From contig JBJOPW010000011.1 of the NCBI GenBank assembly GCA_046050355.1, positions 1 to 36,049 of the forward strand: 36,049 bases of DNA, read 5' to 3'. The DNA is from Candidatus Parcubacteria bacterium. Lineage in GTDB: Bacteria > Patescibacteriota > Minisyncoccia > Phycocordibacterales > UBA918. Of the stretch, positions 1 through 14,251 are shown in pieces. Under the pieces are notes generated by a model that was not told the DNA's origin, did not search any database, and saw only the letters and a program-made list of their open reading frames with translations. The position numbers were made by a program, and so were the translations under genes. How positions within the stretch are numbered: the stretch's first letter is position 1; each line of letters starts with the position of its first letter.

Positions 1-122
1 TCAATTGAAAGTGCTTGTTTTTCATCAGACTCGGTAGATTTTCTGGCGTAGAGTAGATACTTAACTGGCACTTTTGGTACGTCGGTTTTAACGCCAAAGT
101 TGTTCATTACTTGTGTTTCCAT
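1..122 (-). CDS. Serine recombinase (resolvase/large serine integrase family), N-terminal part; runs off the window edge
   Basis: Not in the ORF track. ATG at 122 on the minus strand reads METQVMNNFGVKTDVPKVPVKYLLYARKSTESDEKQALSI, containing the YARxS catalytic-serine motif followed by Q..SI. Confidence 0.85.
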   Translation of the reverse strand, partial: METQVMNNFGVKTDVPKVPVKYLLYARKSTESDEKQALSI

Positions 123-338
123 CAATAATTAATGACAGACCTGCACGAGATGCATAGCTATGCAGACTAAGAAAAGTGTCACATACTCGCTGAAAGCCTT
201 AGCAAAGACACAAACATACGATAGGATGAAATTAGCAGACAAATCTGCTAAAATGTCGTTGTCGCACAATTGAATACATAGAAGTAGCCTAAACTTCAGA
301 GAATATCTGGAGCATGGTGAAAAGTCCTATCAAGCATA

Positions 339-421
339 AAAAACCCGTCATGGGGTTGCTTGATAGGCCGTATCGGGAAACTGGTACGAGAGGGTTCGCC
401 CTCTACCCGTGGCGGGCTTTT
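339..421 (+). ncRNA. Putative structured leader RNA resembling C4-type antisense RNAs
   Basis: Closing stem 344-354/406-416, GAAA-capped hairpin 369-388, UUCG-capped hairpin 389-404. Single-stranded 357-367 is complementary to two flanking direct repeats at 322-337 and 444-459. Confidence 0.5.
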
Positions 422-464
422 TGTATACCCGCCACGAATTATTAAGTCCTATCAAGCATTAATT

Positions 465-950
465 ATGGAAACAAATACACCAGTAGTGAAGAAGCCGTTT
501 TATAAGAAGAAGTGGGTTTGGGCGGTCGCTGTCGTTCTTTTAATTATCATTGGATCAAGTGGTGACAGTTCACAAACAACAAAAACAACTAGCGATACAG
601 CAGAAGCTGAAAAAGTTGCGGTAACAGAAGTTGCTCTTGAAGTCACTGCTACAAAACTAATAGCTGATTACAAAGCCAACGAGATTTCAGCTGATGGTAT
701 GTACAAGGATAAACAAGTAAAAGTAACAGGTGTCGTTGGGTCTATTGCAAAAGATATACTCGATAATCCGTACGTTACTCTTACTGACGAAACACAGTAC
801 GGAATTGAATCAGTACAGTGTTACTTTAGTAAAGCAGATCAGGCTAATCTGGCGAACGTTACTAAAGATACCCGTATAACTCTACAAGGTCGTGTTTCCG
901 GTAAATCACTAACAAACGTATTAGTGAAAGAGTGTTCAATTTCAGAGTAA
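465..950 (+). CDS. Membrane-anchored OB-fold protein (tRNA_anti-like family)
   Basis: Likely start is ATG 465. KKPFYKKKW plus a hydrophobic helix, a S/T-rich linker, then 'L..Y..NE..AD..YK.K...V.G.V..I' and two Cys, typical of this OB-fold family. Confidence 0.7.
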   Translation: METNTPVVKKPFYKKKWVWAVAVVLLIIIGSSGDSSQTTKTTSDTAEAEKVAVTEVALEVTATKLIADYKANEISADGMYKDKQVKVTGVVGSIAKDILDNPYVTLTDETQYGIESVQCYFSKADQANLANVTKDTRITLQGRVSGKSLTNVLVKECSISE

Positions 951-986
951 TTATTTATTATGAAAGAACTTTCAAAATAGTGCTGA

Positions 987-2036
987 CTATTCGTTCAACC
1001 AGAACCAAAAGTCATTCTTAAGGTTTTCGCCAAACATATAGGCATTGGCATGAGAAATGACGCCCATGTAAGATTGCAATGTTGACTTCAATGAGGTCTC
1101 ACTTATTTCTCCTTGCTTGTATAACTGGACGCTCTTTCGTAACTTCCTAGGAATTCTTCGTTTCGTCTTACTCCGCATTTTAATGTGTTCGGGCAAAATG
1201 ACATACCCAAGAAAGTCGATACCTTGGTGATGGGTGGTAAGAGTGACTTTTTTAGGATGTAACTCAAGATGGAGTTTAGTATTAAGAAAGTTTCGCATTG
1301 GAGGTAGTAAGTTCTCAAGATAGACCTTATCTGAGGAAATTAGAATAAAGTCATCAGTGTAACGTGCATAGTGTTTTACCTTAAGATCCCGCTTCACAAA
1401 CTGATCAAACTCATTCATGTAGATATTGGCAAAGATCTGTGATGTAAGGTTACCAATCGGTACTCCTTTCCGGTCAAAAAGATTCGTACGAACAGCGTCA
1501 AAACTGCCAATAATCTCATTCATGAGTCGGACTATTTTTTCATCTTTTACTCTGTGACTAATAATCTTGGCTAATACGTTGTGATCAATGGAATCAAAAA
1601 ATTTTCGTACATCACATTTGAGTGCGTAGCAGGTGCGTGTGTTATTGCGACTTTCTGCCCGAATCATGTCTGCAACTTTCGTGACTCCCTTATGCGTTCC
1701 TTTACCAACACGACACGAAAAAGAATTTGGAATGAAAGTTGGCTCAAATACCGGATTCAACGCTCGAAATACAGCGTGATGAAGAACTCGGTCACGCACG
1801 GTTGCTTTATGTATCCGTCTCACTTTTGGATCATGAATCCAGAATCCTTTATATGGTCCATGCTGGTATGTTTCATTTTTCAAATCTCGATACAAGCCAA
1901 AAATGTTTTGTTCAAGATTTATTTCAAATTCTGCCACATCAGGCTTATTTCGTTTGTCGGCTTTAAATATTTCCCAAGCCTTAAACAACGCTTGCGGAGA
2001 AATTATTAACCAGAACAATTCCTTATAAATTTTCAT
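987..2036 (-). CDS. DGR reverse transcriptase
   Basis: RT motifs RDRVLHHA, LKCDVRKFFDSIDH, GVPIGNLTSQIFAN (DGR-type SQ), RYTDDF and GIDFLGY; 349 aa with no maturase or endonuclease extension; adjacent TR/VR pair. Confidence 0.95.
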   Translation of the reverse strand: MKIYKELFWLIISPQALFKAWEIFKADKRNKPDVAEFEINLEQNIFGLYRDLKNETYQHGPYKGFWIHDPKVRRIHKATVRDRVLHHAVFRALNPVFEPTFIPNSFSCRVGKGTHKGVTKVADMIRAESRNNTRTCYALKCDVRKFFDSIDHNVLAKIISHRVKDEKIVRLMNEIIGSFDAVRTNLFDRKGVPIGNLTSQIFANIYMNEFDQFVKRDLKVKHYARYTDDFILISSDKVYLENLLPPMRNFLNTKLHLELHPKKVTLTTHHQGIDFLGYVILPEHIKMRSKTKRRIPRKLRKSVQLYKQGEISETSLKSTLQSYMGVISHANAYMFGENLKNDFWFWLNE

Positions 2037-2039
2037 ACT

Positions 2040-2393
2040 ATGAATGATTTAGACATACCAATTTTCAAGAAGACATACGACCTGTACAAAGACTTTTATC
2101 AACTACGTCTATCTGTACCGAAGCAGGATCGGTATACTCTTTGGCAAAAATGCGAAAGTCTTCTCATTGAAGTACTTGAGGGCATTCTCTCTGCCAGTCA
2201 GCAATCGAAATCTGAAAAACTTCCAACATTAGAAAAGACAAGTATTAAACTTAATTTCTTACGTATGTGCGTCCGTCTTATGAAAGACATAAAAGCGATT
2301 GATGATAAGAAGTATATTCTCATCGAAGCCAATCTCGACGAAATCGGAAGGATGCTTGGTGGTTGGATTAAGTCTACAAAGACCGTTAGCTAA
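2040..2393 (+). CDS. avd: DGR accessory variability determinant (Avd-like four-helix bundle)
   Basis: 117 aa helical basic protein with PK.DRY.L and EIGRMLGGW motifs, located between RT and TR. Confidence 0.85.
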   Translation: MNDLDIPIFKKTYDLYKDFYQLRLSVPKQDRYTLWQKCESLLIEVLEGILSASQQSKSEKLPTLEKTSIKLNFLRMCVRLMKDIKAIDDKKYILIEANLDEIGRMLGGWIKSTKTVS

Positions 2394-2395
2394 AA

Positions 2396-2422
2396 GAAAC
2401 TCCCGCACAAAGCGGGAGTTTC
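2396..2422. terminator. Hairpin, possible bidirectional terminator between avd and the TR
   Basis: GAAACTCCCGC-acaaa-GCGGGAGTTTC, a perfect 11-bp stem, with a T run on the minus-strand side. Confidence 0.6.
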
Positions 2423-2440
2423 CCTATAGATAGAGGTATG

Positions 2441-2560
2441 ACTGCCTGCCAGCCGACAGACCCAGATTGCCGTTGCGGTTGTCGTCCCAGTAGTTGTTGA
2501 CGTTCAGACCCTTGGCATCGAAGTTGCCGACGTTGACACGGTTACCGTCCGAGTCGAGAT
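2441..2560 (-). repeat. DGR template repeat (TR)
   Basis: Ungapped match to 2921-3040 at offset 480. 14 of 17 mismatches within 2441-2559 lie at minus-strand TR adenines; 9 in-frame AAY codons. Confidence 0.95.
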
Positions 2561-2844
2561 ATTGCTTGTTTCCGTCCGTGGCACTAGAAATTAAGGTTTG
2601 CTACTCCGTGAAGAGTTTATATCCTTTCCTTCTTGAATTTTATTTGAGAGCAGATTCTTTATAGAACCATCTCCACTAGAAACGAGCAAGAAGTTCTCTC
2701 TATCCTTGTTCGCACTCTGCTGTGATCCGTAGACCAGTAGCACTCTGGCGATTCTCAAAGTGAGATATCCCGCGAGTGTGAACCGTAACCCACACTACAG
2801 TAGCAAGATAAAGAAAGTATATTTCGTTTGTATAAAAAATGAAA

Positions 2845-2880
2845 GAGCCTCCGTGCGAAAAAAAATTCGCGCGGAGGCTC
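2845..2880 (-). promoter_or_regulatory. GC-rich inverted repeat downstream of the VR (candidate DGR homing hairpin and/or terminator)
   Basis: GAGCCTCCGTGCGAA-aaaaaa-TTCGCGCGGAGGCTC, a 15-bp stem with one mismatch, about 40 nt past the target stop codon. Confidence 0.6.
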
Positions 2881-2918
2881 AAGGTTTCAAGAGGAACAAG
2901 TCCTCAAGTGGTCAAGGA

Positions 2919-3719
2919 TCACTTCCTGCCAGCCGACAGACCCAGACCGCCGCCGCGGTCGTCGTCCCAGTCGTAGCTGACGTAAAGACCCTTGGCAACG
3001 AAGTAGCCGACGAAGACACGGAGACCGTCCGAGTCGAGACTCGACGTGCGAACGTAGACGCTCGGCAGCAGATAGGTGTTGCGAACGGCCTTGAAGGTCG
3101 TCACGCACCACGCCACTTCGGCAACGTTCGGGGTCACCTCGTCGTCGGACAGAAGAGCCTGCTGCTCGGCCCAGTTCTTCGCGGTCGATTGCGGGACCGG
3201 CTCCTTGCGAAGCATGATCCAGCGGGTTTCGGCCTTGTCGTTCTGGGCGAACGCTTGCTCGGCATACCAGCCGCCTTCCTTCGAGTAGAAGTAGTCCTTC
3301 TTGAGGCTGCGAACCTCGAGGAGGGACATGGGGCGGTTGGGTCCAGCGATCAGCATGTAGCCGTTGTCGCGGCACCACTCGAACACTTCTTGCGAAGGAA
3401 CGGTGTCGCTGAACTGCGCGAGCTGGTCGTCGGTATAGACGATCGCTTTGCGCGACTTCATGACATCCTCGGGGGAGATGAAATCCTTGCCGAGGATGGT
3501 GCGGACCAGTTCGTAGTTCGGCGCTTTCGCCGAGAAGCGACTGATCCCCGCGAGCATGTAGGCGGCGAAGCCCGGGTGCTCGTTGAGTCTCTGCGCGCCA
3601 TCTTCATCGAGTCCGGCCTTATTGTATTGGGCGCGGAACGTTTCGGTAGCTCTTTGTCCTTTCGGACCGTCTGCGGTTACCAGTGCAGACGTGTTCAATG
3701 ACTGTTTCATCGACATCAT
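2919..3719 (-). CDS. DGR target (variable) protein with C-terminal VR, probably a C-type-lectin-like fold
   Basis: The last ~39 codons (LDSDGLRVFVGYF...LGLSAGRK) are the VR. AAGG lies just before the ATG; no signal peptide is seen. The fold is inferred from known DGR targets. Confidence 0.9.
   Translation of the reverse strand: MMSMKQSLNTSALVTADGPKGQRATETFRAQYNKAGLDEDGAQRLNEHPGFAAYMLAGISRFSAKAPNYELVRTILGKDFISPEDVMKSRKAIVYTDDQLAQFSDTVPSQEVFEWCRDNGYMLIAGPNRPMSLLEVRSLKKDYFYSKEGGWYAEQAFAQNDKAETRWIMLRKEPVPQSTAKNWAEQQALLSDDEVTPNVAEVAWCVTTFKAVRNTYLLPSVYVRTSSLDSDGLRVFVGYFVAKGLYVSYDWDDDRGGGLGLSAGRK
2921..3040 (-). repeat. DGR variable repeat (VR)
   Basis: Copy of the TR at the 3' end of the target gene; all nine TR Asn codons are substituted (L,F,Y,Y,S,Y,D,G,G). 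Confidence 0.95.
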
Positions 3720-3844
3720 CCTTTGTTGGTTTTCCGAAATCGCTCGGTAACGACTGGTCTCTGTGCGAGACGAGCGAGCTATGGCCTATAGAAATAAGCC
3801 ACAATTCGCTCGTCTCAGTGATTTTTTTCAAAGAACGGACTTAT

Positions 3845-3874
3845 AATATAACACGAATACATAGTATCTGTCAA
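3845..3874 (-). promoter_or_regulatory. Putative sigma70 promoter for the DGR target gene
   Basis: Minus strand TTGACA (3874-3869), 18-nt spacer, TGn-TATATT (3850-3845). Confidence 0.55.
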
Positions 3875-3929
3875 GCAAGTGCTGGGATGATTTCTAACAT
3901 AGTATCGTCATATAGCGTTATATCTTACC

Positions 3930-5366
3930 TTACGCAAAAAATATTCTCGGTCGTTCTGGTTTCTTATTAACCATAACTTCAAGCGTGACTAACGAAAATG
4001 CATCAGCTAGATCATCATGCTTTTCTGAGCCAAAATGTATCAACTCTTGAATTAATTTATCGCTTGTTTCGTGTGGAAAAAAGACCCGTTTTTCACTGAG
4101 TGCCGTAGCAGCTAGATTAAGACGTTCTCGCTTATCCCCAAGCGGTCGAACTCCCTCAACTTCAATTGCTGTTTTTTCAAAATGTTGCACCACAGCCTCC
4201 TGATAAGCAACATTCTCAATTAAGAATTCTGGACTGAGCTTATACTTGGAGTTCAATTTAAGGTCAAGATATTTAATTTGTTCGCATGTTTTAGGAAAGC
4301 TCATGCGTGCATGTACAATCTCAGGTAATACGTACATGTATAACTCGCTGTTTTTTGTACAAGCCATAATAGGAACCATGGCGGTGTAGTCAGCTGTTGT
4401 CTTTTCTGAAATCGCAAGATCTACACCTACAAAAATACCTAAACGCTTCATGTCACTTGGTATCTCGTGATAGGTGCGAATCCAGAGAGGATCTATAATC
4501 TGCTCGTCATCAGGAATAATTTTCAATAGGTACTCCCGTTCCCATGCCTGATTACTCATTACCTCCTTCCTTAGTTTCTCAAGTGATTCCTTGTCAGGAA
4601 ACTTTTCTGGCCACAAACAATCCCCGTGACCATTAACAAGCGGGTAAGCTTTGAAAACACCAGATACTTCATTGTCATCAATTTTCTTTCGCAATCGAAC
4701 CATCAGCGAATCATCGTGTACCAGGTTCCCGATCAGCACAATTTTTGTATTGAGATCCCCAGCAGGAATGATTTCGCCAGTAAACCAATTAAAGGTCTTG
4801 TCACGGTTGTCCTGAGTTTTAGTAGAAGCAATATCTTCAATGTCGTCGCAGATAATTAAGTCAGGACGATGACTTTTATGTCGAAGTCCACGCATACTTT
4901 GGTCAGCTGACAGTACCATAATACGAGCATCATATTTTGGTATGACAATCGAAGATGCTCGCCATTCATCCTGTGGCTCCTCAAATGGACCGAGATCCTG
5001 TTTCAAGAGTTCATTACGTTCTAGTTCGACTTTTATGTTATGAAGTAACTGCTTAGCCTGTACTTGTGTTCGAGAGATCAGTAGTACAAACTTTTTTTGT
5101 TGTTTACCCAGGATTGCCCAAATCGGGTATGACAATGAAAAAATAGTTGATTTTGCTGATCCTCTAAACGAGACTATGGCAAAAAACTTTTCATCGGTGC
5201 GTTCCGTGAATTCAATCATTTCTGTATGGAACGACGCACTCGGATATTTAATGTATTCATGGAGGTAAATTGGTATAAAGTATTTGTGGCTTTCTTTAGT
5301 CACTTCACGTCGTACGGCACTGTCATTGGTAATTCGCTCAAGTAGATCTGAAGAAAAATTATTCAT
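3930..5366 (-). CDS. terL: Phage terminase large subunit-like protein
   Basis: Walker A-like FRGSAKST, Walker B DLIICDDIED, nuclease-domain GVDLA...DYTA and C-terminal HDDLADA. Confidence 0.85.
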   Translation of the reverse strand: MNNFSSDLLERITNDSAVRREVTKESHKYFIPIYLHEYIKYPSASFHTEMIEFTERTDEKFFAIVSFRGSAKSTIFSLSYPIWAILGKQQKKFVLLISRTQVQAKQLLHNIKVELERNELLKQDLGPFEEPQDEWRASSIVIPKYDARIMVLSADQSMRGLRHKSHRPDLIICDDIEDIASTKTQDNRDKTFNWFTGEIIPAGDLNTKIVLIGNLVHDDSLMVRLRKKIDDNEVSGVFKAYPLVNGHGDCLWPEKFPDKESLEKLRKEVMSNQAWEREYLLKIIPDDEQIIDPLWIRTYHEIPSDMKRLGIFVGVDLAISEKTTADYTAMVPIMACTKNSELYMYVLPEIVHARMSFPKTCEQIKYLDLKLNSKYKLSPEFLIENVAYQEAVVQHFEKTAIEVEGVRPLGDKRERLNLAATALSEKRVFFPHETSDKLIQELIHFGSEKHDDLADAFSLVTLEVMVNKKPERPRIFFA

Positions 5367-5745
5367 GTTTCTTTGTTGTAATGTTTGATAATTCCAGCGC
5401 TTGTCTAATAGTTTCTTTCTGAGTGTCAGTTAACTCAGGCAGTTCGTGCTTATTGACTACTTCCACCTTGTCTTTATAGGCTGGATGGCGTTTATTGAGC
5501 CAGAATCGTACCGCTGGAAAGTTCTTTTCCTTGATTAGGGTGAGAAGCTGGCTTTCACTCATGTCGTTCACCAAAGCAACACCGTCAGCGAGGGCTTGCC
5601 TCATTTTCTTCTCAAACTCCTTATCTTCTTTTCGCCAGCGGTATACTGTATTGCGAGACAAGTCAGCTTTCTCACACGCCACCTGTATAATTGGGACCTT
5701 AGTCAGCTCAAGCAAAAACTGTTCCTGAAATTTATTCTTTTTCAT
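5359..5745 (-). CDS. HTH protein, probable terminase small subunit
   Basis: ACEKADLSRNTVYRWRKEDKEF helix-turn-helix; overlaps the terL start. Confidence 0.65.
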   Translation of the reverse strand: MKKNKFQEQFLLELTKVPIIQVACEKADLSRNTVYRWRKEDKEFEKKMRQALADGVALVNDMSESQLLTLIKEKNFPAVRFWLNKRHPAYKDKVEVVNKHELPELTDTQKETIRQALELSNITTKKHE

Positions 5746-7006
5746 AGTAGTTTTTGATTACTATTGCTTTCCGACCAGTCAGTTTCTCGTAGCGACGAAT
5801 TGCTAAATCGCAAAAAACAGGTTCGATTTCAAGCGAATATACTTTTCTATCCAGTTGTTCAGCACAGATCATGGTGCTAGCAGATCCTGAGAATGCATCG
5901 AAGATAATGTCCCCAGGCTTAGTGCATCGCATAATAAACTTATGGTGCAGTTCGGGATTCTTACTAGTTGGGTGCTCCATTTGGTTTGAAGGTAATCGCT
6001 TAGTCGCCCAAATATTCGAGATATCTTCAAGTAGTTGATTACCCGTCGTGCAATCTTTGTTTTGGATCTCATTAAGATTTTTTATGAGGTCAGATAAGTA
6101 CGGAGAACCTTTTGTCCCATACACACAAAACTCTGTGCACTTATTAAATGCAACGGTCGGTATCGGGGACGAATTGTTCTTCACCCATATGTTGAGTCGT
6201 CGGTTCTTGATACCAAGTTCCATATAAAGTGTCTGGAATACCCATACCCACGCTTCGTCACACCAAAATGCGACATGTGTGTCTTTAGTAGCTACTGCAA
6301 GCGACGACTGCATGACTTTTCGTATAAAGTCTACATAGGCATCAGGTGACTGATTGTCATCAAACGACCCACCGTAATTACTTTTGTTACCAACACCTTT
6401 GTCATACGAAAGACCAATATTGAACGGCGGATCACTATAGATAGCGACTGCCTTGTCATCACCAAACAGTTTTTTGACTGCACTAATATCAGTTGAACTG
6501 GCACAAAGCAGTTTATGTTTGCCCATGACAATAAGATCACCTAGCTTTGTTTGTGGTGCTTTAATCTGCTTAAGTTCTTTCTCGACATCGAACATGTCAT
6601 CTTTGGTGTCATTATCTTCGTCCCAGAACTTCACCAGCTCCTTTTCATCAAATCCTGCGAATTGAAGTAACTCTAAGTCAAAAGACTTTAATTTATCGAA
6701 GTCCCACTCTCCGTCATTAATGTTGCTTTCAATACCAATTTTCCGTCGCTCATTGTCTGTGAGTTTTCGACTTGGGACTAATACATTTACCTTACCAATG
6801 CCAAGCTCAGTGAGTGCCGTCTTGCGCTGATTGCCCGATAGTATAGTGTTATCGGTATCAATGACGATTACACTGTGAAATCCGTTTTGCTTAATTTTCG
6901 TCTTTAGCTTATCGAGACCTTGTTGTGATATTTTTCTTGGATTTTCCTTCCAAGGTAATAAATCTGTAACTTCTCGTACTTCTGCACGCCAGATTAGTTT
7001 CTTCAT
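5732..7006 (-). CDS. ParB-like N-terminal domain fused to an N4/N6 DNA methyltransferase
   Basis: N-terminal NPRKI...ILSGNQR (ParB/Srx-like); catalytic DPPF; HPTSK; SAM-binding DAFSGSAST; phage-type arrangement upstream of the terminase genes. Confidence 0.9.
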   Translation of the reverse strand: MKKLIWRAEVREVTDLLPWKENPRKISQQGLDKLKTKIKQNGFHSVIVIDTDNTILSGNQRKTALTELGIGKVNVLVPSRKLTDNERRKIGIESNINDGEWDFDKLKSFDLELLQFAGFDEKELVKFWDEDNDTKDDMFDVEKELKQIKAPQTKLGDLIVMGKHKLLCASSTDISAVKKLFGDDKAVAIYSDPPFNIGLSYDKGVGNKSNYGGSFDDNQSPDAYVDFIRKVMQSSLAVATKDTHVAFWCDEAWVWVFQTLYMELGIKNRRLNIWVKNNSSPIPTVAFNKCTEFCVYGTKGSPYLSDLIKNLNEIQNKDCTTGNQLLEDISNIWATKRLPSNQMEHPTSKNPELHHKFIMRCTKPGDIIFDAFSGSASTMICAEQLDRKVYSLEIEPVFCDLAIRRYEKLTGRKAIVIKNYYEKE

Positions 7007-7167
7007 TTTATTTAGTACTTACGTAAATAAAATGTATGGATATAGAAAAAGCCTACTTCCACACACGAAATAGCAAAACCGTTTGGTTAACTATTTCTTG
7101 CGCGGAGTAGGCATAGCGGTGAGGCGGTGCGTTACTCTACTTTTTACTACGCAATGATGAGTTAATT

Positions 7168-7578
7168 TTACTCCTCTGATTTTTCTTTGGCAAGGCCTCG
7201 GATTTTCCGCTTGCCGTTTTTGCTGTGTATAAACTGCTCAGCGTCATTACCAAGCTTCGTTGGCGCTCCGCCTTTGGGAAAGGCGAAAAACACCTTACCC
7301 CCATTTGCATTAGTCTGACGGACTAATGCAATAAGTTCAGGATCATTCTCGATTTTGTCATTGATTGTATCTTTGTCTTTTTGCAGATCACCTGTTGATT
7401 GAACATACACCCGAGTCGCTTCTTTCTTATCCATCGCTCTTACTATCTTTTTGCCAACGGAGGGTGTTTCCGAGAAATCCCTAGTGTGAAGTGACATATC
7501 CGTAACATGAATTACTACATCACCATTTTGTGGCATTCGGGTGGGTGCGTGGGTTATTAGTTTATCTACCATTTTCAT
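7168..7578 (-). CDS. Hypothetical protein
   Basis: 136 aa ORF filling the intergenic space; no motif recognised. Confidence 0.55.
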   Translation of the reverse strand: MKMVDKLITHAPTRMPQNGDVVIHVTDMSLHTRDFSETPSVGKKIVRAMDKKEATRVYVQSTGDLQKDKDTINDKIENDPELIALVRQTNANGGKVFFAFPKGGAPTKLGNDAEQFIHSKNGKRKIRGLAKEKSEE

Positions 7579-7682
7579 ATGATTATTTTACTACGAAACA
7601 ATATCTAATGACTGACTACACTTAGAATAGCCTTATTTTTAGTATAATTGAGACATTCTCTGTATCAGGGCGGTATGACTTT

Positions 7683-9944
7683 ATGGAAGAAAATCAGAAT
7701 GAAAACAAAAAATTTACACTAAAGCAGCAGTTTTTACTGTTTGTTTTCCGATCACAGCAGTTAGTTCGTGCTTGGCTGTTACGAAAGAAGAACTTGGCGA
7801 CTGAAATAGTAGACACAATTTACTTCCAAGCTCTTATTTTTACGATATTTCTGTGCGGTACACACTATGTATTAGAGCTATACAAGCTACATTTCACCCG
7901 AGATCAGCTAGTGAGTATCGGATTAGCTGTGGCAGGTGTGATTGGTGCATCAATTGCCATTGTATTTTCGTTTTCTACCTTCATTCTCCAAAGTACTGCC
8001 GACCTGTTCTCAACGCAGTACCTTAATAAATTTATTCAGGATAAGAATGAAAAACTCATTTTTTGGAGCTTAGTCGCACTAACGTTTGCAGCAGCACTTG
8101 TTCCAATCTTTGCTTTTAGTGAAACTTTTGAGATTTTGCTTGGAATTTTATTTCTTGCATTTCTGCTTATATACTCACTCTATAAACAACTCCGCCAGCG
8201 TATCAATCCTGAAACTACCCTTAACAAAATAAAGAACGATGCTTTTTACCATTTGCGGTATGCACGACGTGAGCTAGAAAAACAAGCAAAAATCCAGAAT
8301 AAGATTTACGAACAAGAGGAGCGAGAAGAAAAGTTTACACTAGCGATTCAGTACAAGGCGTACCCATTATGGAGCGCGTTGACACTAGAAAACGTTAAGT
8401 ATCTCTATGAAATTGGACTGCGCCTTCTCTCAAAGAATGAAATCAACTCGTTTAACTTAACCCTCAGATACATTCATGATGTATACCTAGAGCACCTACG
8501 CTTGCGAAATGAGCATGTTATGTGTGTACCGGCCGGCTTGTGGGGAACATACACATTTGAGGATGAGAATTTCACTTCTTCGATATTGGAGTATCTTGAG
8601 TCAATCAGCCACCGCCTGATACAGGAAAAACGAAAAGAGAACATTTACAATCTCCTCAATGTTTATGAAAGTATCCTTAGTACTTCCTTGAAGTTTAAGT
8701 ACGCAGACCAGAATATGTATAATCAAGGTGAGAACCCAATCCTAAGTCTAGTACTAGGCTACTATATTGGCTTCATCGACAAACTAACCGAATCAAACGA
8801 ACGAGATTGGATTTGGGAGTCGTTAAAGTCCCTTACCAAGGTATCTAATGGTGTGTTAGGTAAAGGGTACAACCACTTCAATCACAATCAAATCAACGAT
8901 GCTATTGATCGAATCGTAGTGCATTGTTTTAAAAATAAACAACCCGAAAGCTTAACCAAGCAAGCTGTTTCGGTATATTTCAGTCAAGCGAAGGTTGGTT
9001 GGAATCAGTATCCAGACGAAGAAATATTTTGGCAGGATTTGTTTAAAGGTCTCCAAAAGAGCACCCTCGCTTTGGTAATCTCAAGTGAGATGAACCTTAC
9101 GTCTAGTGAACTGTACCTAGGGTTTAATGAGTGGCTCACCCTCATTTGCAACACCGTAGTTGGACTAGAAGAGGGCGAGGAGAAGAAAAAAGCATTCGAT
9201 AACTTCATCTCATTACTAGAGCGCTGGAGTGACTACTTGCTCGACTTTGCTCGGTCTACTGGCTTGGAGAATAAACAGATGGGTCTCCAAATTATTCAGG
9301 CAGTGAACTGCAACTTACGAATCATAAACTTCCTCAGTGTTAAATTCGATAAAGATTTAAGCAGCTTGTACCGAACGCAAATGCATACCCTAAGTTGGTA
9401 TTTTCATAATGTTGAGTCAGTTGATAGTAGCCATTTGTTTAATTTAGAGATTGTACAAGAAACACTAATAAGTGAAGTGTCCAGTAATCTAGATGAGCAA
9501 GTCTTTGACCCAAAGTTTGCTACTGAGTTATACATTCAGCTAGTGAAAAATTATTTCGATAAGGTGTCATTGGGACACGGATATAACCATCCTCGAGTAA
9601 TTAAAAAATTGGTATATCTTGGGTTGTTATTCCAAAAGTACTGTAAAGACACAGTAGAGCTAGTTGAACTTATTGATAACTTAAACAAGCGATACATAAT
9701 CTTGAATCAAGATTATTGGAAAATGAAGAAAGAACATCCAACACTATCTGGTCCCACCATGCATCAGCTCTGCTTAGAACTCCATGAACTAGAAAATGAT
9801 CTCTTTTCGTATAACAGAAACGTGAATCACGGAGCCAAGATGATTTTGAAACATGAAATAACTCAGGAAATCTGGGATGAGTTTGTGGCTAAAATTGAAT
9901 GGTGCAAAGATATTAAGTATGAAACAAGAAGTTCTTTCTTTTAA
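7683..9944 (+). CDS. Large hypothetical membrane protein (N-terminal TM helices, long helical C-terminal region)
   Basis: 753 aa with about four hydrophobic segments in residues 45-170; AT-rich cargo gene. Confidence 0.75.
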   Translation: MEENQNENKKFTLKQQFLLFVFRSQQLVRAWLLRKKNLATEIVDTIYFQALIFTIFLCGTHYVLELYKLHFTRDQLVSIGLAVAGVIGASIAIVFSFSTFILQSTADLFSTQYLNKFIQDKNEKLIFWSLVALTFAAALVPIFAFSETFEILLGILFLAFLLIYSLYKQLRQRINPETTLNKIKNDAFYHLRYARRELEKQAKIQNKIYEQEEREEKFTLAIQYKAYPLWSALTLENVKYLYEIGLRLLSKNEINSFNLTLRYIHDVYLEHLRLRNEHVMCVPAGLWGTYTFEDENFTSSILEYLESISHRLIQEKRKENIYNLLNVYESILSTSLKFKYADQNMYNQGENPILSLVLGYYIGFIDKLTESNERDWIWESLKSLTKVSNGVLGKGYNHFNHNQINDAIDRIVVHCFKNKQPESLTKQAVSVYFSQAKVGWNQYPDEEIFWQDLFKGLQKSTLALVISSEMNLTSSELYLGFNEWLTLICNTVVGLEEGEEKKKAFDNFISLLERWSDYLLDFARSTGLENKQMGLQIIQAVNCNLRIINFLSVKFDKDLSSLYRTQMHTLSWYFHNVESVDSSHLFNLEIVQETLISEVSSNLDEQVFDPKFATELYIQLVKNYFDKVSLGHGYNHPRVIKKLVYLGLLFQKYCKDTVELVELIDNLNKRYIILNQDYWKMKKEHPTLSGPTMHQLCLELHELENDLFSYNRNVNHGAKMILKHEITQEIWDEFVAKIEWCKDIKYETRSSFF

Positions 9945-10219
9945 ACTCCTAAGAGTTACAGTACTGTGTAACTTTGCGACACATCTTGAGATATGTGTCA
10001 CTTTTGTAACTTTTTGCGCACGAGACCCTTATTTGTAGCCATTTGGAAAATTAGCCAATCGGTCAAGCCAGGCTTGACGGTAATACGGTTCCTGCCCGAG
10101 ACGGCCCGCAGGAGTTTGAGACGATAGTTTCAAAGAGGGATTCCAAAACCCTGAATATATCGCACGCGGAACCCAAGTACCCAGAAAACGTAAACCAAGC
10201 TATAATTATTCGTATACAT

Positions 10220-13399: not shown

Positions 13400-13405
13400 T
13401 CGTTT

Positions 13406-13931
13406 GGAATCTCATATCCTCTCGCAAAACAAATGTGAGGTTCGGTCACGCTTATGGATATTTTGTATCGTTATACTCACAAAATATCTCATGCGCCCGA
13501 CCCGGACTGTTTCGGCCCTAAAGGGAACCCCAAACAATCTTTCGAATCTCACATCCTCGCGCAACGGCAAAGGCCGCAAACATATCCATGTTTGCGGCCT
13601 GCCGATTGCGGAGGATGTGAGATTCGGTTACCAGTCACTAAGTATATTTGTCGTCTCGACTCCAAATCTACTAAGTGCTGTCGACCCCACCTCACTCGCC
13701 TAACGGCTCGTTGCGGTTTTCGAATCTCAACGTGAAGCAAAATTATTTGCTTCACTCATCCTCCGCGGCCTTTTTGAGGCGCTTTATTGTACTCGCGGAG
13801 GATGTGAGATTCGAAACTTACAGTTTCAGTACCCCAATTGGATACTTTGGTTCGCTTTGCTCCCAAAGTCTCTCAATCGGGCTTCGAATCCCAGCGCAAG
13901 TGACATTTAGTCACTTGCTCATCCTCCGCGC
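13406..13931. repeat. Array of alternating inverted and direct copies of the tRNA-Ser 3' end with hairpin spacers
   Basis: Direct copies at 13608-13626 and 13794-13815; inverted copies at 13541-13561, 13719-13767 and 13883-13931; degenerate copies at 13406-13445. Confidence 0.85.
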
Positions 13932-13968
13932 AAGAAAATAACCACCCCTGGGTGGTATTTTCAACGCG

Positions 13969-14055
13969 CGGAGGATGTGAGATTCGAACTCACGAGACGT
14001 TTTACCGTCCGGCGGTTTAGTAAACCGCTGCCTTCAGCCACTCGGCCAATCCTCC
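13969..14055 (-). tRNA. tRNA-Ser, anticodon ACT
   Basis: GGAGGAT/ATCCTCC acceptor, G73, anticodon arm GCGGT-TTACTAA-ACCGC, long variable arm, GTTCGAATC T-loop; no encoded CCA. Confidence 0.9.
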
Positions 14056-14251
14056 ATATATTTCGCTGCGCTCAAATGGAGGCGCGCTACGCGGTCCATT
14101 GTCCGAGTGGCTCGGCACTATCGTGCCGGTACCATTCTGCAGCAGTGCAGAATGGTACCCAACTCGGCCAATCCTCCAATATACTCGCTTTTTTACAACA
14201 GTTGTTGTGCACGCCAGTATAGACGAAAATGACAAAAAATCAAAATTGATA

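Follow-up and report, generated by a model that had tools for sequence, protein, structure and literature searches.

In the phage-inducible chromosomal islands (PICIs, with the SaPIs among them) packaging is directed by a small terminase subunit (TerS) that works with the large subunit (TerL) of the helper phage, and the islands have a primase-replicase and often genes that remodel the capsid size (PMC10085698; this paper, like PMC9618062 and PMC8144416, is cited for the sections drawn on here). The capsid-forming PICIs (cfPICIs), likewise small and integrated, supply both TerS and TerL as well as a capsid, portal, adaptor and connector of their own, and borrow tails only (PMC10085698). A large serine recombinase integrates the PICI-like elements (PLEs) of Vibrio cholerae and the module 3 virion encapsidated integrative mobile elements (VEIMEs); some VEIMEs carry TerS, restriction-modification or Abi genes, with TerL expected from the helper (PMC9618062). 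Here we analyzed a stretch of DNA, called the window below, that represents the entire 36,049-bp contig C11 of the Candidatus Parcubacteria genome G000 (940 kb, 17 contigs, 99.97% complete). Positions 1 to ~10110 of the window and positions 1-1547 of contig C14 (G000:C14:1-1547) together make up a single copy (~11 kb) of a small integrative mobile element whose family is found in the Patescibacteria, or candidate phyla radiation (CPR). The element, a phage-satellite-like integrative island, is broadly distributed within this understudied radiation and probably represents a novel type of phage satellite.

The closest functional parallel is a cfPICI stripped of its capsid genes, or a PICI to which a TerL has been added, yet the element fails the defining features of both. 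Like the element, cfPICIs encode both terminase subunits; they package only their own DNA and rely on the helper for the rest of the virion. Unlike them, the element lacks capsid, portal and adaptor, and has a serine recombinase (Rec), a ParB-methyltransferase fusion (ParB-MTase) and no recognisable primase-replicase. The parallel with the PICIs/SaPIs lies in the island format (~10 kb for PICIs), an integrase, a repressor-controlled operon, TerS-redirected packaging and accessory or defence genes, but the element has a TerL and no primase/replicase domain in its core genes. PICI integrases are usually of the tyrosine type. The PLEs and VEIMEs, compared on the basis of their description, are similar in the use of a serine recombinase and, for some, in the presence of TerS and defence genes; they differ in that the cited sections describe no TerL for them and in their hosts, which are Vibrio and marine plankton, respectively (PMC9618062). 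In the literature searched (subscription journals and supplements were outside the scope) we found no description of a terminase-recombinase element in CPR bacteria.

The five core genes and the conserved non-coding segment of the element are arranged in the window as follows:

7168-7578, minus strand: ORF136, first gene of the conserved operon
5732-7006, minus strand: ParB-MTase, a ParB_N domain fused to an N6/N4 DNA methyltransferase (phrog_498, 5e-74)
5359-5745, minus strand: TerS-like protein (several terS PHROGs, best phrog_4044 at 1.7e-9; weak Sf6_terminase and HTH matches)
3930-5366, minus strand: TerL (phrog_38, 1.3e-75)
122 to 1, minus strand: first 40 codons of Rec, a large serine recombinase, cut by the contig end (whole gene G000:C14:207-1547)
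9953-10110, plus strand: segment A, conserved non-coding sequence of ~155 bp (conserved with G018 and G022, two genomes of the same genus)

The full 446-aa Rec encoded on C14 has the domain architecture of a large serine recombinase (Resolvase, Recombinase, Zn_ribbon_recom), and its gene is always found at the 3' end of the operon. The contigs C11 and C14 overlap, as positions 1-332 of the former are 89% identical in nucleotide sequence to the reverse complement of C14:331-1, the 40 Rec residues show 100% identity and each contig end falls within an identical stretch. We interpret this overlap as an assembly bubble between strains; in the probable source run, positions 33-326 occur in both variants, which differ in depth. 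The G+C content over the first 10 kb is 38-44% versus ~48% genome-wide, with the exception of the 1-kb bin 3001-4000. Within the core genes no primase/replicase domain was found using Pfam and PHROGs, and PADLOC, applied to ten proteins of the element, yielded generic reverse transcriptase (RT) and methylase matches only. For ORF136 nothing useful was obtained from Pfam, PHROGs or PADLOC, and its AlphaFold2 (AF2) model (pLDDT 83) had no match in the PDB.

The gene set is not confined to this genome. Relatives of TerL were recovered from 8 of the 36 other genomes of the genus and from none of 24 genomes of other families in the order. In seven of the genus genomes (G018, G007, G022, G019, G001, G027 and G030) TerL adjoins a Rec homolog and no portal gene, and wherever the contig reaches far enough TerS, ParB-MTase and ORF136 are found upstream. 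A TerL alignment search recovered at least 511 related stretches in one-genome-per-species contigs and 344 in IMG/VR. To make an inventory of the gene content, all open reading frames (ORFs) of the best 80 loci from the genome collection and the best 80 from IMG/VR were clustered together with those of G000 (161 sources). Four clusters dominated: TerL (159), ParB-MTase (145), TerS (113) and Rec (103). The next cluster was a LexA/S24-type repressor encoded divergently from the operon (31), which gives the element the look of an inducible one, and other clusters included ORF136 (30), the OB-fold gene described below (25), RT (13) and its accessory protein Avd (10). The conserved order is ORF136 > ParB-MTase > TerS > TerL > (zero to nine cargo genes) > Rec, and these five core genes are all that is common to the window and its eight closest TerL relatives. 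Of 400 genomes sampled from the class, 19 possess a full-length element-type TerL (586-750 bits, counted on TerL score alone). Several IMG/VR contigs hold two whole elements (e.g. L116/L117, L102/L138 and L106/L143).

In a maximum-likelihood tree of 158 TerL rows, 136 rows of elements and 22 of phages fall on opposite sides of a branch with an SH-aLRT support of 100. Among the former, Rec is found within the next 10 ORFs in 94, something else in 25 and a contig too short to tell in 17, and a portal in none. ParB-MTase lies at most three ORFs upstream of TerL in 127 of the 136. Where Rec was found it is always on the TerL strand (94/94), either immediately after TerL (43/94) or with 1-9 ORFs in between. 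By comparison, 19 of the 22 phage rows have a portal within three ORFs. These phage-clade loci are the most distant of the set, all derive from IMG/VR (L159-L181) and encode a TerL that is 36-44% identical to that of the window. In these loci TerL is followed by a small ORF, a 740-aa portal (phrog_2662, 1e-101), a protease, a major head protein (phrog_10), a head-tail adaptor and further genes. The closest TerL of a GenBank phage is only 26% identical, and hence the element TerL has no cultured relative. An alignment of five TerL homologs of 43-50% identity has invariant columns that include candidate motif residues, which we take to be the Walker A, Walker B and nuclease acidic motifs. In L049, L119, L125, L131, L135 and L136, Rec is preceded by a tandem of two distinct TerL genes, which belong to different subclades of the tree.

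Structural genes are absent from the element. Profiles made from the portal, capsid, protease and adaptor proteins of the phages match phage-clade loci only, with the exception of a 159-aa ORF on L151 (30 bits with the portal profile). The same proteins and HMMs, including that of the major capsid protein (MCP), recovered nothing in the whole of G000, where PF04860 had no match and PF05065 a single one of 14 bits, below the cut-off. None of the ORFs at 7168-9944 has a head or tail match in Pfam or PHROGs, those scanned from 10 to 33 kb resemble host genes (domains of unknown function, type IV pilus genes, LigA, an amidase), and no head/tail gene is among the 10 largest ORFs of C14:207-12813, which are Rec and host-like genes. 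Beyond Rec, C14 continues with a SAM methyltransferase, an Rrf2 regulator, a tRNA-Ser, an MFS transporter, malic enzyme and RecG. A portal, capsid and tail linked to a terminase, as expected for a tailed (pro)phage, were thus found neither in the window nor on C14 nor elsewhere in the genome.

The same 400 genomes contain full-length portals in two members of the order, G337 and G407, and partial ones in G449 and G389. Both G337 and G407 carry a complete prophage (G337:C11, covered by L213-L215, and G407:C23 at ~3600-39000, covered by L216 and L217), in which a full set of head and tail genes comes after TerL and a tyrosine integrase closes the prophage. The phage clade thus has hosts among the relatives of G000. 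Their TerL scores ~390 bits in the search with the element TerL and is 60-61% identical to that of the IMG/VR phages. These temperate phages of the Paceibacteria have ParB-MTase, TerS and TerL in common with the element, in G407 supplemented by a diversity-generating retroelement (DGR) and a LOOT-like RNA and in G337 by an OB-fold gene, situated in the place equivalent to that of the G407 DGR. Unlike the element, they possess structural genes after TerL, a tyrosine integrase and a TerL of the separate clade. Phages of the G337/G407 type are candidates for the helper, or else for the stock from which the element arose.

The sequence comparison with the nearest relative, G018, shows that the element is both constrained and mobile. 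TerL of G000 and G018 is 97.7% identical at the amino acid level and 88.7% at the nucleotide level (dN 0.014, dS 0.76), and is therefore under strong purifying selection. For the other core genes dN is 0.06-0.41 and the NG86 method gave no dS value, which we read as saturation. The protein identities vary widely (Rec 91%, ORF136 84%, TerS 82%, ParB-MTase 58%), and the host proteins that flank the G018 copy are ~57-71% identical to their G000 counterparts, which lie on a different contig (C2). A TerL that is 98% identical between species with flanking host proteins at ~57-71%, together with the swapping of modules, argues for frequent horizontal movement. ParB-MTase is ~58% identical among close relatives whatever the identity of TerL, which points to allele swapping, perhaps for methylation specificity. 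Swapping is also seen in metagenomes, for which the assembled contigs of four runs were compared. In X8, an independent sludge run from another study, one contig of 3153 nt spans window positions 1-501 and extends ~2650 nt past position 1, a second spans 473-2946 at 92% identity and a third corresponds to 3035-5565, followed by 1436 different letters that replace ParB-MTase and then by 6996-7072. The X8 element is 92-95% identical to the window on either side of the swap (5566-6995). Given the five-gene core that alone is common to the relatives and the allele swap in X8, we conclude that this is a horizontally moving, recombining element rather than a decaying remnant; it moves between species and recombines module by module. 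The gap between the second and third X8 contigs (2946-3035) coincides with the variable repeat of the DGR.

A first-pass annotation, made from the letters and translations alone, had proposed a capsid-less integrative element with its own packaging motor, and this core idea is supported by the missing structural genes, the separate TerL clade and the wide recurrence. It had listed the minus-strand order as ParB-MTase, TerS-like, TerL, DGR target, template repeat, RT and serine recombinase. Domain and PHROG matches bear out that order, with the amendments that Avd is on the plus strand, that a LOOT RNA and an OB-fold gene are located between RT and Rec, and that the window holds only 40 codons of Rec. 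The DGR was rightly said to occupy the portal slot after TerL, which is where the related phages have their portal. The statement that structural genes are lacking up to the host genes near 10 kb extends to all ORFs scanned in the window, to C14 and to the genome. It had also been suggested that a head-tail set to the left of the recombinase, or a gene set without recurrence elsewhere, would speak against the idea; C14 shows Rec and then host genes, and the survey of TerL neighbourhoods recovered the gene set widely across Patescibacteria. Finally, the impression that the ORFs were intact rather than those of a decayed prophage agrees with the intact core ORFs and the purifying selection on TerL.

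The size of the element is bounded. Segment A contains a GTTACA-N6-TGTAAC palindrome and two tandem GTCACTTTT repeats, and has no match in Rfam. An nhmmer search recovered 50 matches in 164 sources, always on the ParB-MTase side and in the same orientation, and segment A probably marks the end opposite Rec; it is a candidate att, pac or operator region. In the 27 loci that contain both landmarks, segment A lies 6.0-16.7 kb from the stop codon of Rec (median 10.0 kb), and in G000 this distance is 11.3 kb. We sought an empty site via the methyltransferase gene that adjoins Rec, but its ortholog was found only in G018, after a tmRNA gene in a rearranged region, and none was obtained. Likewise, a comparison of the segment-A end and the Rec end gave no consistent repeat in the 27 loci; there was one 18-nt direct repeat, in L077 only.

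Cargo is found in two slots, one between segment A and ORF136 and the other between TerL and Rec. The cargo of the window, apart from the DGR, consists of:

7683-9944, plus strand: ORF753, multi-pass membrane protein with a large helical domain (weak DUF2254 match)
466-950, plus strand: OB-fold gene, tRNA_anti-like/Sie-like, membrane-anchored, accessory (PF12869, 4e-24; phrog_8545, 4.5e-23)
286-404, plus strand: LOOT RNA (Rfam RF03000, 89.6 bits versus a gathering score of 46.4), divergent from Rec

The first slot holds ORF753 in G000, a gene with a counterpart in L137 only, and a LexA-like repressor and/or a SMODS cyclase of the cyclic oligonucleotide-based antiphage signalling system (CBASS) in G018 and G007. 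The second holds the DGR, LOOT and the OB-fold gene in G000, and OB-fold genes and unknowns elsewhere. Cargo that recurs in or beside the elements includes type I and III restriction-modification systems, PLD-SNF2 helicases, helicases with T5orf172, large superfamily 1 (SF1) helicases, ABC ATPases, copper-resistance genes and CBASS SMODS. Such cargo is typical of satellites and defence islands. Immediately beyond Rec, a copper-resistance cluster (P-type ATPase, multicopper oxidase, cupredoxin, DsbA-like protein) is present in different CPR lineages (G007, G022, G019, L024-L027, L055, L076 and others), which could be either cargo or a preferred insertion neighbourhood.

On balance, we hold it narrowly probable that the element is a satellite-like island that packages itself, by means of its own terminase, into the capsids of a helper. 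Rec would integrate and excise the element, which in many copies, not including the present one, would be kept silent by the LexA/S24-type repressor. When a helper phage from the related clade with portals infects the cell or is induced, the TerS-TerL complex would recognise the DNA of the element and package it into helper procapsids, so that both capsids and tails would be borrowed. ParB-MTase probably methylates the DNA for packaging or aids in its processing, and segment A might serve as the att, pac or operator region. The DGR, restriction-modification, CBASS, copper-resistance and Sie-like genes are accessory, to the benefit of host or element, and no part of the transfer machinery. A wider claim can be formulated as well, namely that the elements represent a new class of satellites across the Patescibacteria that is characterized by a full TerS-TerL, ParB-MTase, Rec and no capsid genes, takes over helper procapsids, has two cargo slots that form a main vehicle for defence, metal resistance and DGRs, and includes segment A and LOOT as parts of the system; in our estimate this falls a little short of probable.

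Several observations weigh against packaging into helper capsids. In the cited sections no satellite class was found that has a TerL but no capsid, and the mechanism is thus without experimental precedent (PMC10085698, PMC9618062). Neither a replication gene nor an excision factor was recognised in the element, ORF136 has no match, and the window copy does not have the LexA-like repressor that is present in G018. Searches with portal, MCP, protease and adaptor recovered no helper prophage in G000, and the viral labelling of the IMG/VR contigs may rest on TerL alone. The att sites and circular-junction sequences that the first-pass annotation had proposed to look for did not turn up: the att sites and exact ends were not found and the flanks are rearranged relative to the nearest relative, terminal direct repeats occur in 0 of 54 whole short contigs, the contigs of the four metagenome runs include no circular junction, and neither an excised circle nor an encapsidated form was seen.

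The main rival, which we consider unlikely, is an integrative defence or fitness island that moves rarely, by Rec alone, and in which the terminase does not serve self-transfer. TerS, TerL and ParB-MTase would instead counter infecting phages, for instance as a decoy by which phage packaging is hijacked or blocked, or would drive the lateral transduction of neighbouring host DNA. This would fit the dominance of defence genes in the cargo, the lack of a recognised replication gene and of a free form in the short contigs, and the fact that the element is around ten times commoner than the related prophages (19 versus 2 full-length cases in the 400 class genomes). However, the TerL identity set against the host divergence and the swapping of modules argue for frequent horizontal movement, interference with packaging in known satellites requires TerS only according to the cited sections (PMC9618062, PMC10085698), and the strong constraint on a complete TerL, with conserved putative ATPase and nuclease motifs, fits real packaging better. 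Decay provides another possible origin, the element then being a grounded prophage remnant that lost its morphogenesis genes and is non-functional as a unit. Complete prophages of the order indeed contain counterparts of ParB-MTase/TerS/TerL, the DGR, LOOT and the OB-fold gene, L151 has the 159-aa ORF with its 30-bit portal match, and a truncated Rec remnant is present on G000:C2. Yet the element TerLs form one clade of 136 rows over many CPR lineages, without a portal, which independent decay would not yield; and considering further that all core ORFs are intact, that TerL has a dN/dS of ~0.02, that the elements use a serine recombinase where the complete prophages examined use tyrosine integrases, and that the ends are conserved and the size range is narrow, we disfavour decay and regard it as very unlikely.

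An even smaller chance is given to a complete virus or a system like a gene transfer agent (GTA), with capsid genes that are unrecognisable or encoded elsewhere in the genome. ORF136, ORF753 and the DGR target, which lack a known fold or family, leave some room for such hidden genes, but beyond the core no gene is conserved across the elements, Rec directly follows TerL in 43 of 94 cases, a span of 6-17 kb has no room for a head-tail set and G000 contains nothing that matches the portal, MCP, protease or adaptor of the related phages; this explanation is likewise disfavoured. An assembly or binning artefact, for instance a chimeric contig end, was suggested by the start of the window at a contig end inside Rec, the overlap between C11 and C14 at only 89% identity and the presence of two variants, unequal in depth, in the probable source run. 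For the core it is refuted, as the order Rec-LOOT-OB-fold-RT-Avd-TR-target-TerL-TerS (TR being the template repeat) was found on three overlapping or abutting X8 contigs, and the core order recurs in hundreds of unrelated assemblies.

CPR bacteria are uncultivated and have tiny genomes. To our knowledge, the movement of genes among them is almost wholly obscure, with few recognised plasmids or phages. Given its cargo in the loci examined and the element-type TerL in 19 of the 400 class genomes, the element would rank among the major carriers of horizontally transferred genes and of defence against phages in these bacteria. It would also add a so far undescribed satellite strategy in which the whole packaging motor is brought along and the shell alone is borrowed. 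The element also offers a testable handle on the specificity between terminase and portal. Furthermore, some of the 'cellular' DGRs of CPR bacteria ride mobile elements and are common to temperate phages, and the orphan Rfam family LOOT gains a genomic context.

The DGR that occupies most of the second cargo slot is composed of:

987-2036, minus strand: DGR RT (PF00078, 3e-26; phrog_1423, 6e-115)
2040-2393, plus strand: bAvd accessory protein (PF22296, 1.3e-17; phrog_3206), divergent from RT
2438-2559, minus strand: template repeat (TR)
2845-2883, minus strand: G+C-rich hairpin followed by a T-run, directly downstream of the target stop; as read from the sequence, likely a terminator or a DGR-associated hairpin
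2918-3039, minus strand: variable repeat (VR), 3' end of the target gene, last 40 codons
2919-3719, minus strand: DGR target, 266 aa, no Pfam family and no obvious signal peptide

TR and VR are 85% identical over 122 nt. All 14 mismatches within the true repeat concern TR adenines (minus strand) and affect positions 1 or 2 of the target codons; the four remaining differences, none at an adenine, fall beyond the repeat proper, on the 3' edge of the aligned 122 nt. The cassette is a DGR, with an RT beside a TR/VR pair, changes confined to adenines, a C-terminal VR and the accessory Avd, and both the RT and the TR/VR pair are unique in G000. A contig of low depth that fuses a TR-like sequence to VR via 22 other letters showed differences outside adenines, and so was not taken as DGR activity. 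The target belongs to a large Patescibacteria family, as 379 homologs of ~265 aa were detected, none with a Pfam domain. An AF2 model based on 37 sequences had a pLDDT of 68 overall and below 50 for the VR part, and Foldseek recovered nothing from the PDB at E <= 0.001. A wide structure search with this low-confidence model gave TaqVP, a DGR variable protein, as the best match (Z of only 2.5), which does not suffice to assign a fold, such as a C-type lectin for the VR domain, and a protein atlas search with the target returned unnamed Minisyncoccota clusters only.

The G+C content of the target region is 54% (bin 3001-4000) versus 39-41% for most neighbouring bins, and in the G407 DGR it is 62% versus 53% for RT. 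As a consequence of this high G+C content, long but spurious ORFs arise on the other strand, among them the one at 2760-3701 (plus strand), which was rejected as a real gene because of the codon-position pattern of VR and the 379 homologs of the minus-strand protein. The divergent arrangement of Avd and RT was also seen in DGR loci whose coordinates were checked (e.g. L109, L049, L107, L099 and L044). In this DGR lineage (the window, the loci just named and L217) avd is positioned between TR and RT on the strand opposite to RT, which implies that a TR-RT transcript would run antisense through avd.

The DGR is a movable accessory cassette, common to phages and elements and outside the element core. 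It qualifies as optional cargo because just 15 of the 160 other TerL loci contain a DGR RT (in either cargo slot or just past Rec), because the seven same-genus copies have no DGR, and because a complete prophage carries the cassette as well. That prophage, of G407, has a homologous cassette near its integrase, with a target that is 53%, a reversed Avd that is 67.5% and an RT that is 62% identical to that of the window (target L217:12785-13657, VR L217:13539-13655, TR 14014-14130). Adenines account for 10 of the 11 TR/VR mismatches in this cassette, which is followed by a LOOT-like RNA. Homologs of the target were found in 8 of 60 other genomes of the genus; of the seven among these eight that were also searched for TerL only G018 possesses one, on a different contig. 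The first-pass annotation had assigned the hypervariable protein a role in the recognition of helper-phage or host proteins by the element. The distribution lends this no support, in that the DGR is optional, the cassette is also part of a complete prophage and homologs of the target exist in genomes of the genus away from any TerL. Patescibacteria-restricted DGRs (clade 2) have been classed as cell-encoded (Roux et al. 2021, PMC8144416). Likened by its features and not by RT clade, the DGR of the window resembles these in the adenine-specific TR/VR, Avd, the C-terminal VR and the Patescibacteria host, but unlike cell-encoded DGRs it rides a terminase-recombinase element, as in 15 other loci, and in G407 a prophage.

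LOOT lies directly 5' of the OB-fold gene in the window, and the layout is the same in G018 and G022. The OB-fold ORF was listed as 360-950 with a TTG start at 360; on reading the sequence, the probable start is the ATG at 466. Its product resembles the superinfection-exclusion (Sie-like) proteins of phages. An nhmmer profile was seeded from three Rfam-level matches and searched against the 164 sources, which yielded 47 copies in 45 of them. Of the 46 rows examined, 16 have LOOT directly 5' of the OB-fold gene on the same strand, and elsewhere it precedes different small genes. Around half of the copies (22) are situated between TerL and Rec. Copies outside the window include L015:15619-15751 (minus strand) and L018:18281-18400 (plus strand), and the G407 prophage has one as well. 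The LOOT family is thus tied to this element family. A function of LOOT was not found in the literature, and the main text of PMC5737381 (supplements outside the scope) is silent on it.

Two further sites in G000 may bear marks of insertion. In the region 13400-14055 of the window the 3' end of a tRNA-Ser occurs three times in direct orientation (from 13610, 13797 and 13970), and there are also inverted copies that make long hairpins. The adjoining tRNA-Ser (13968-14055) has the unusual anticodon ACU, and an ordinary tRNA-Ser(GCU) is encoded at C14:3306-3396. The region looks like an integration hotspot that was used repeatedly. Finally, the remnant at G000:C2:37241-37822 matches the C-terminal half of Rec only and is 73% identical to Rec of G018. 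It is located beside the genes that flank the intact element in G018, which suggests an older, decayed insertion at that site.

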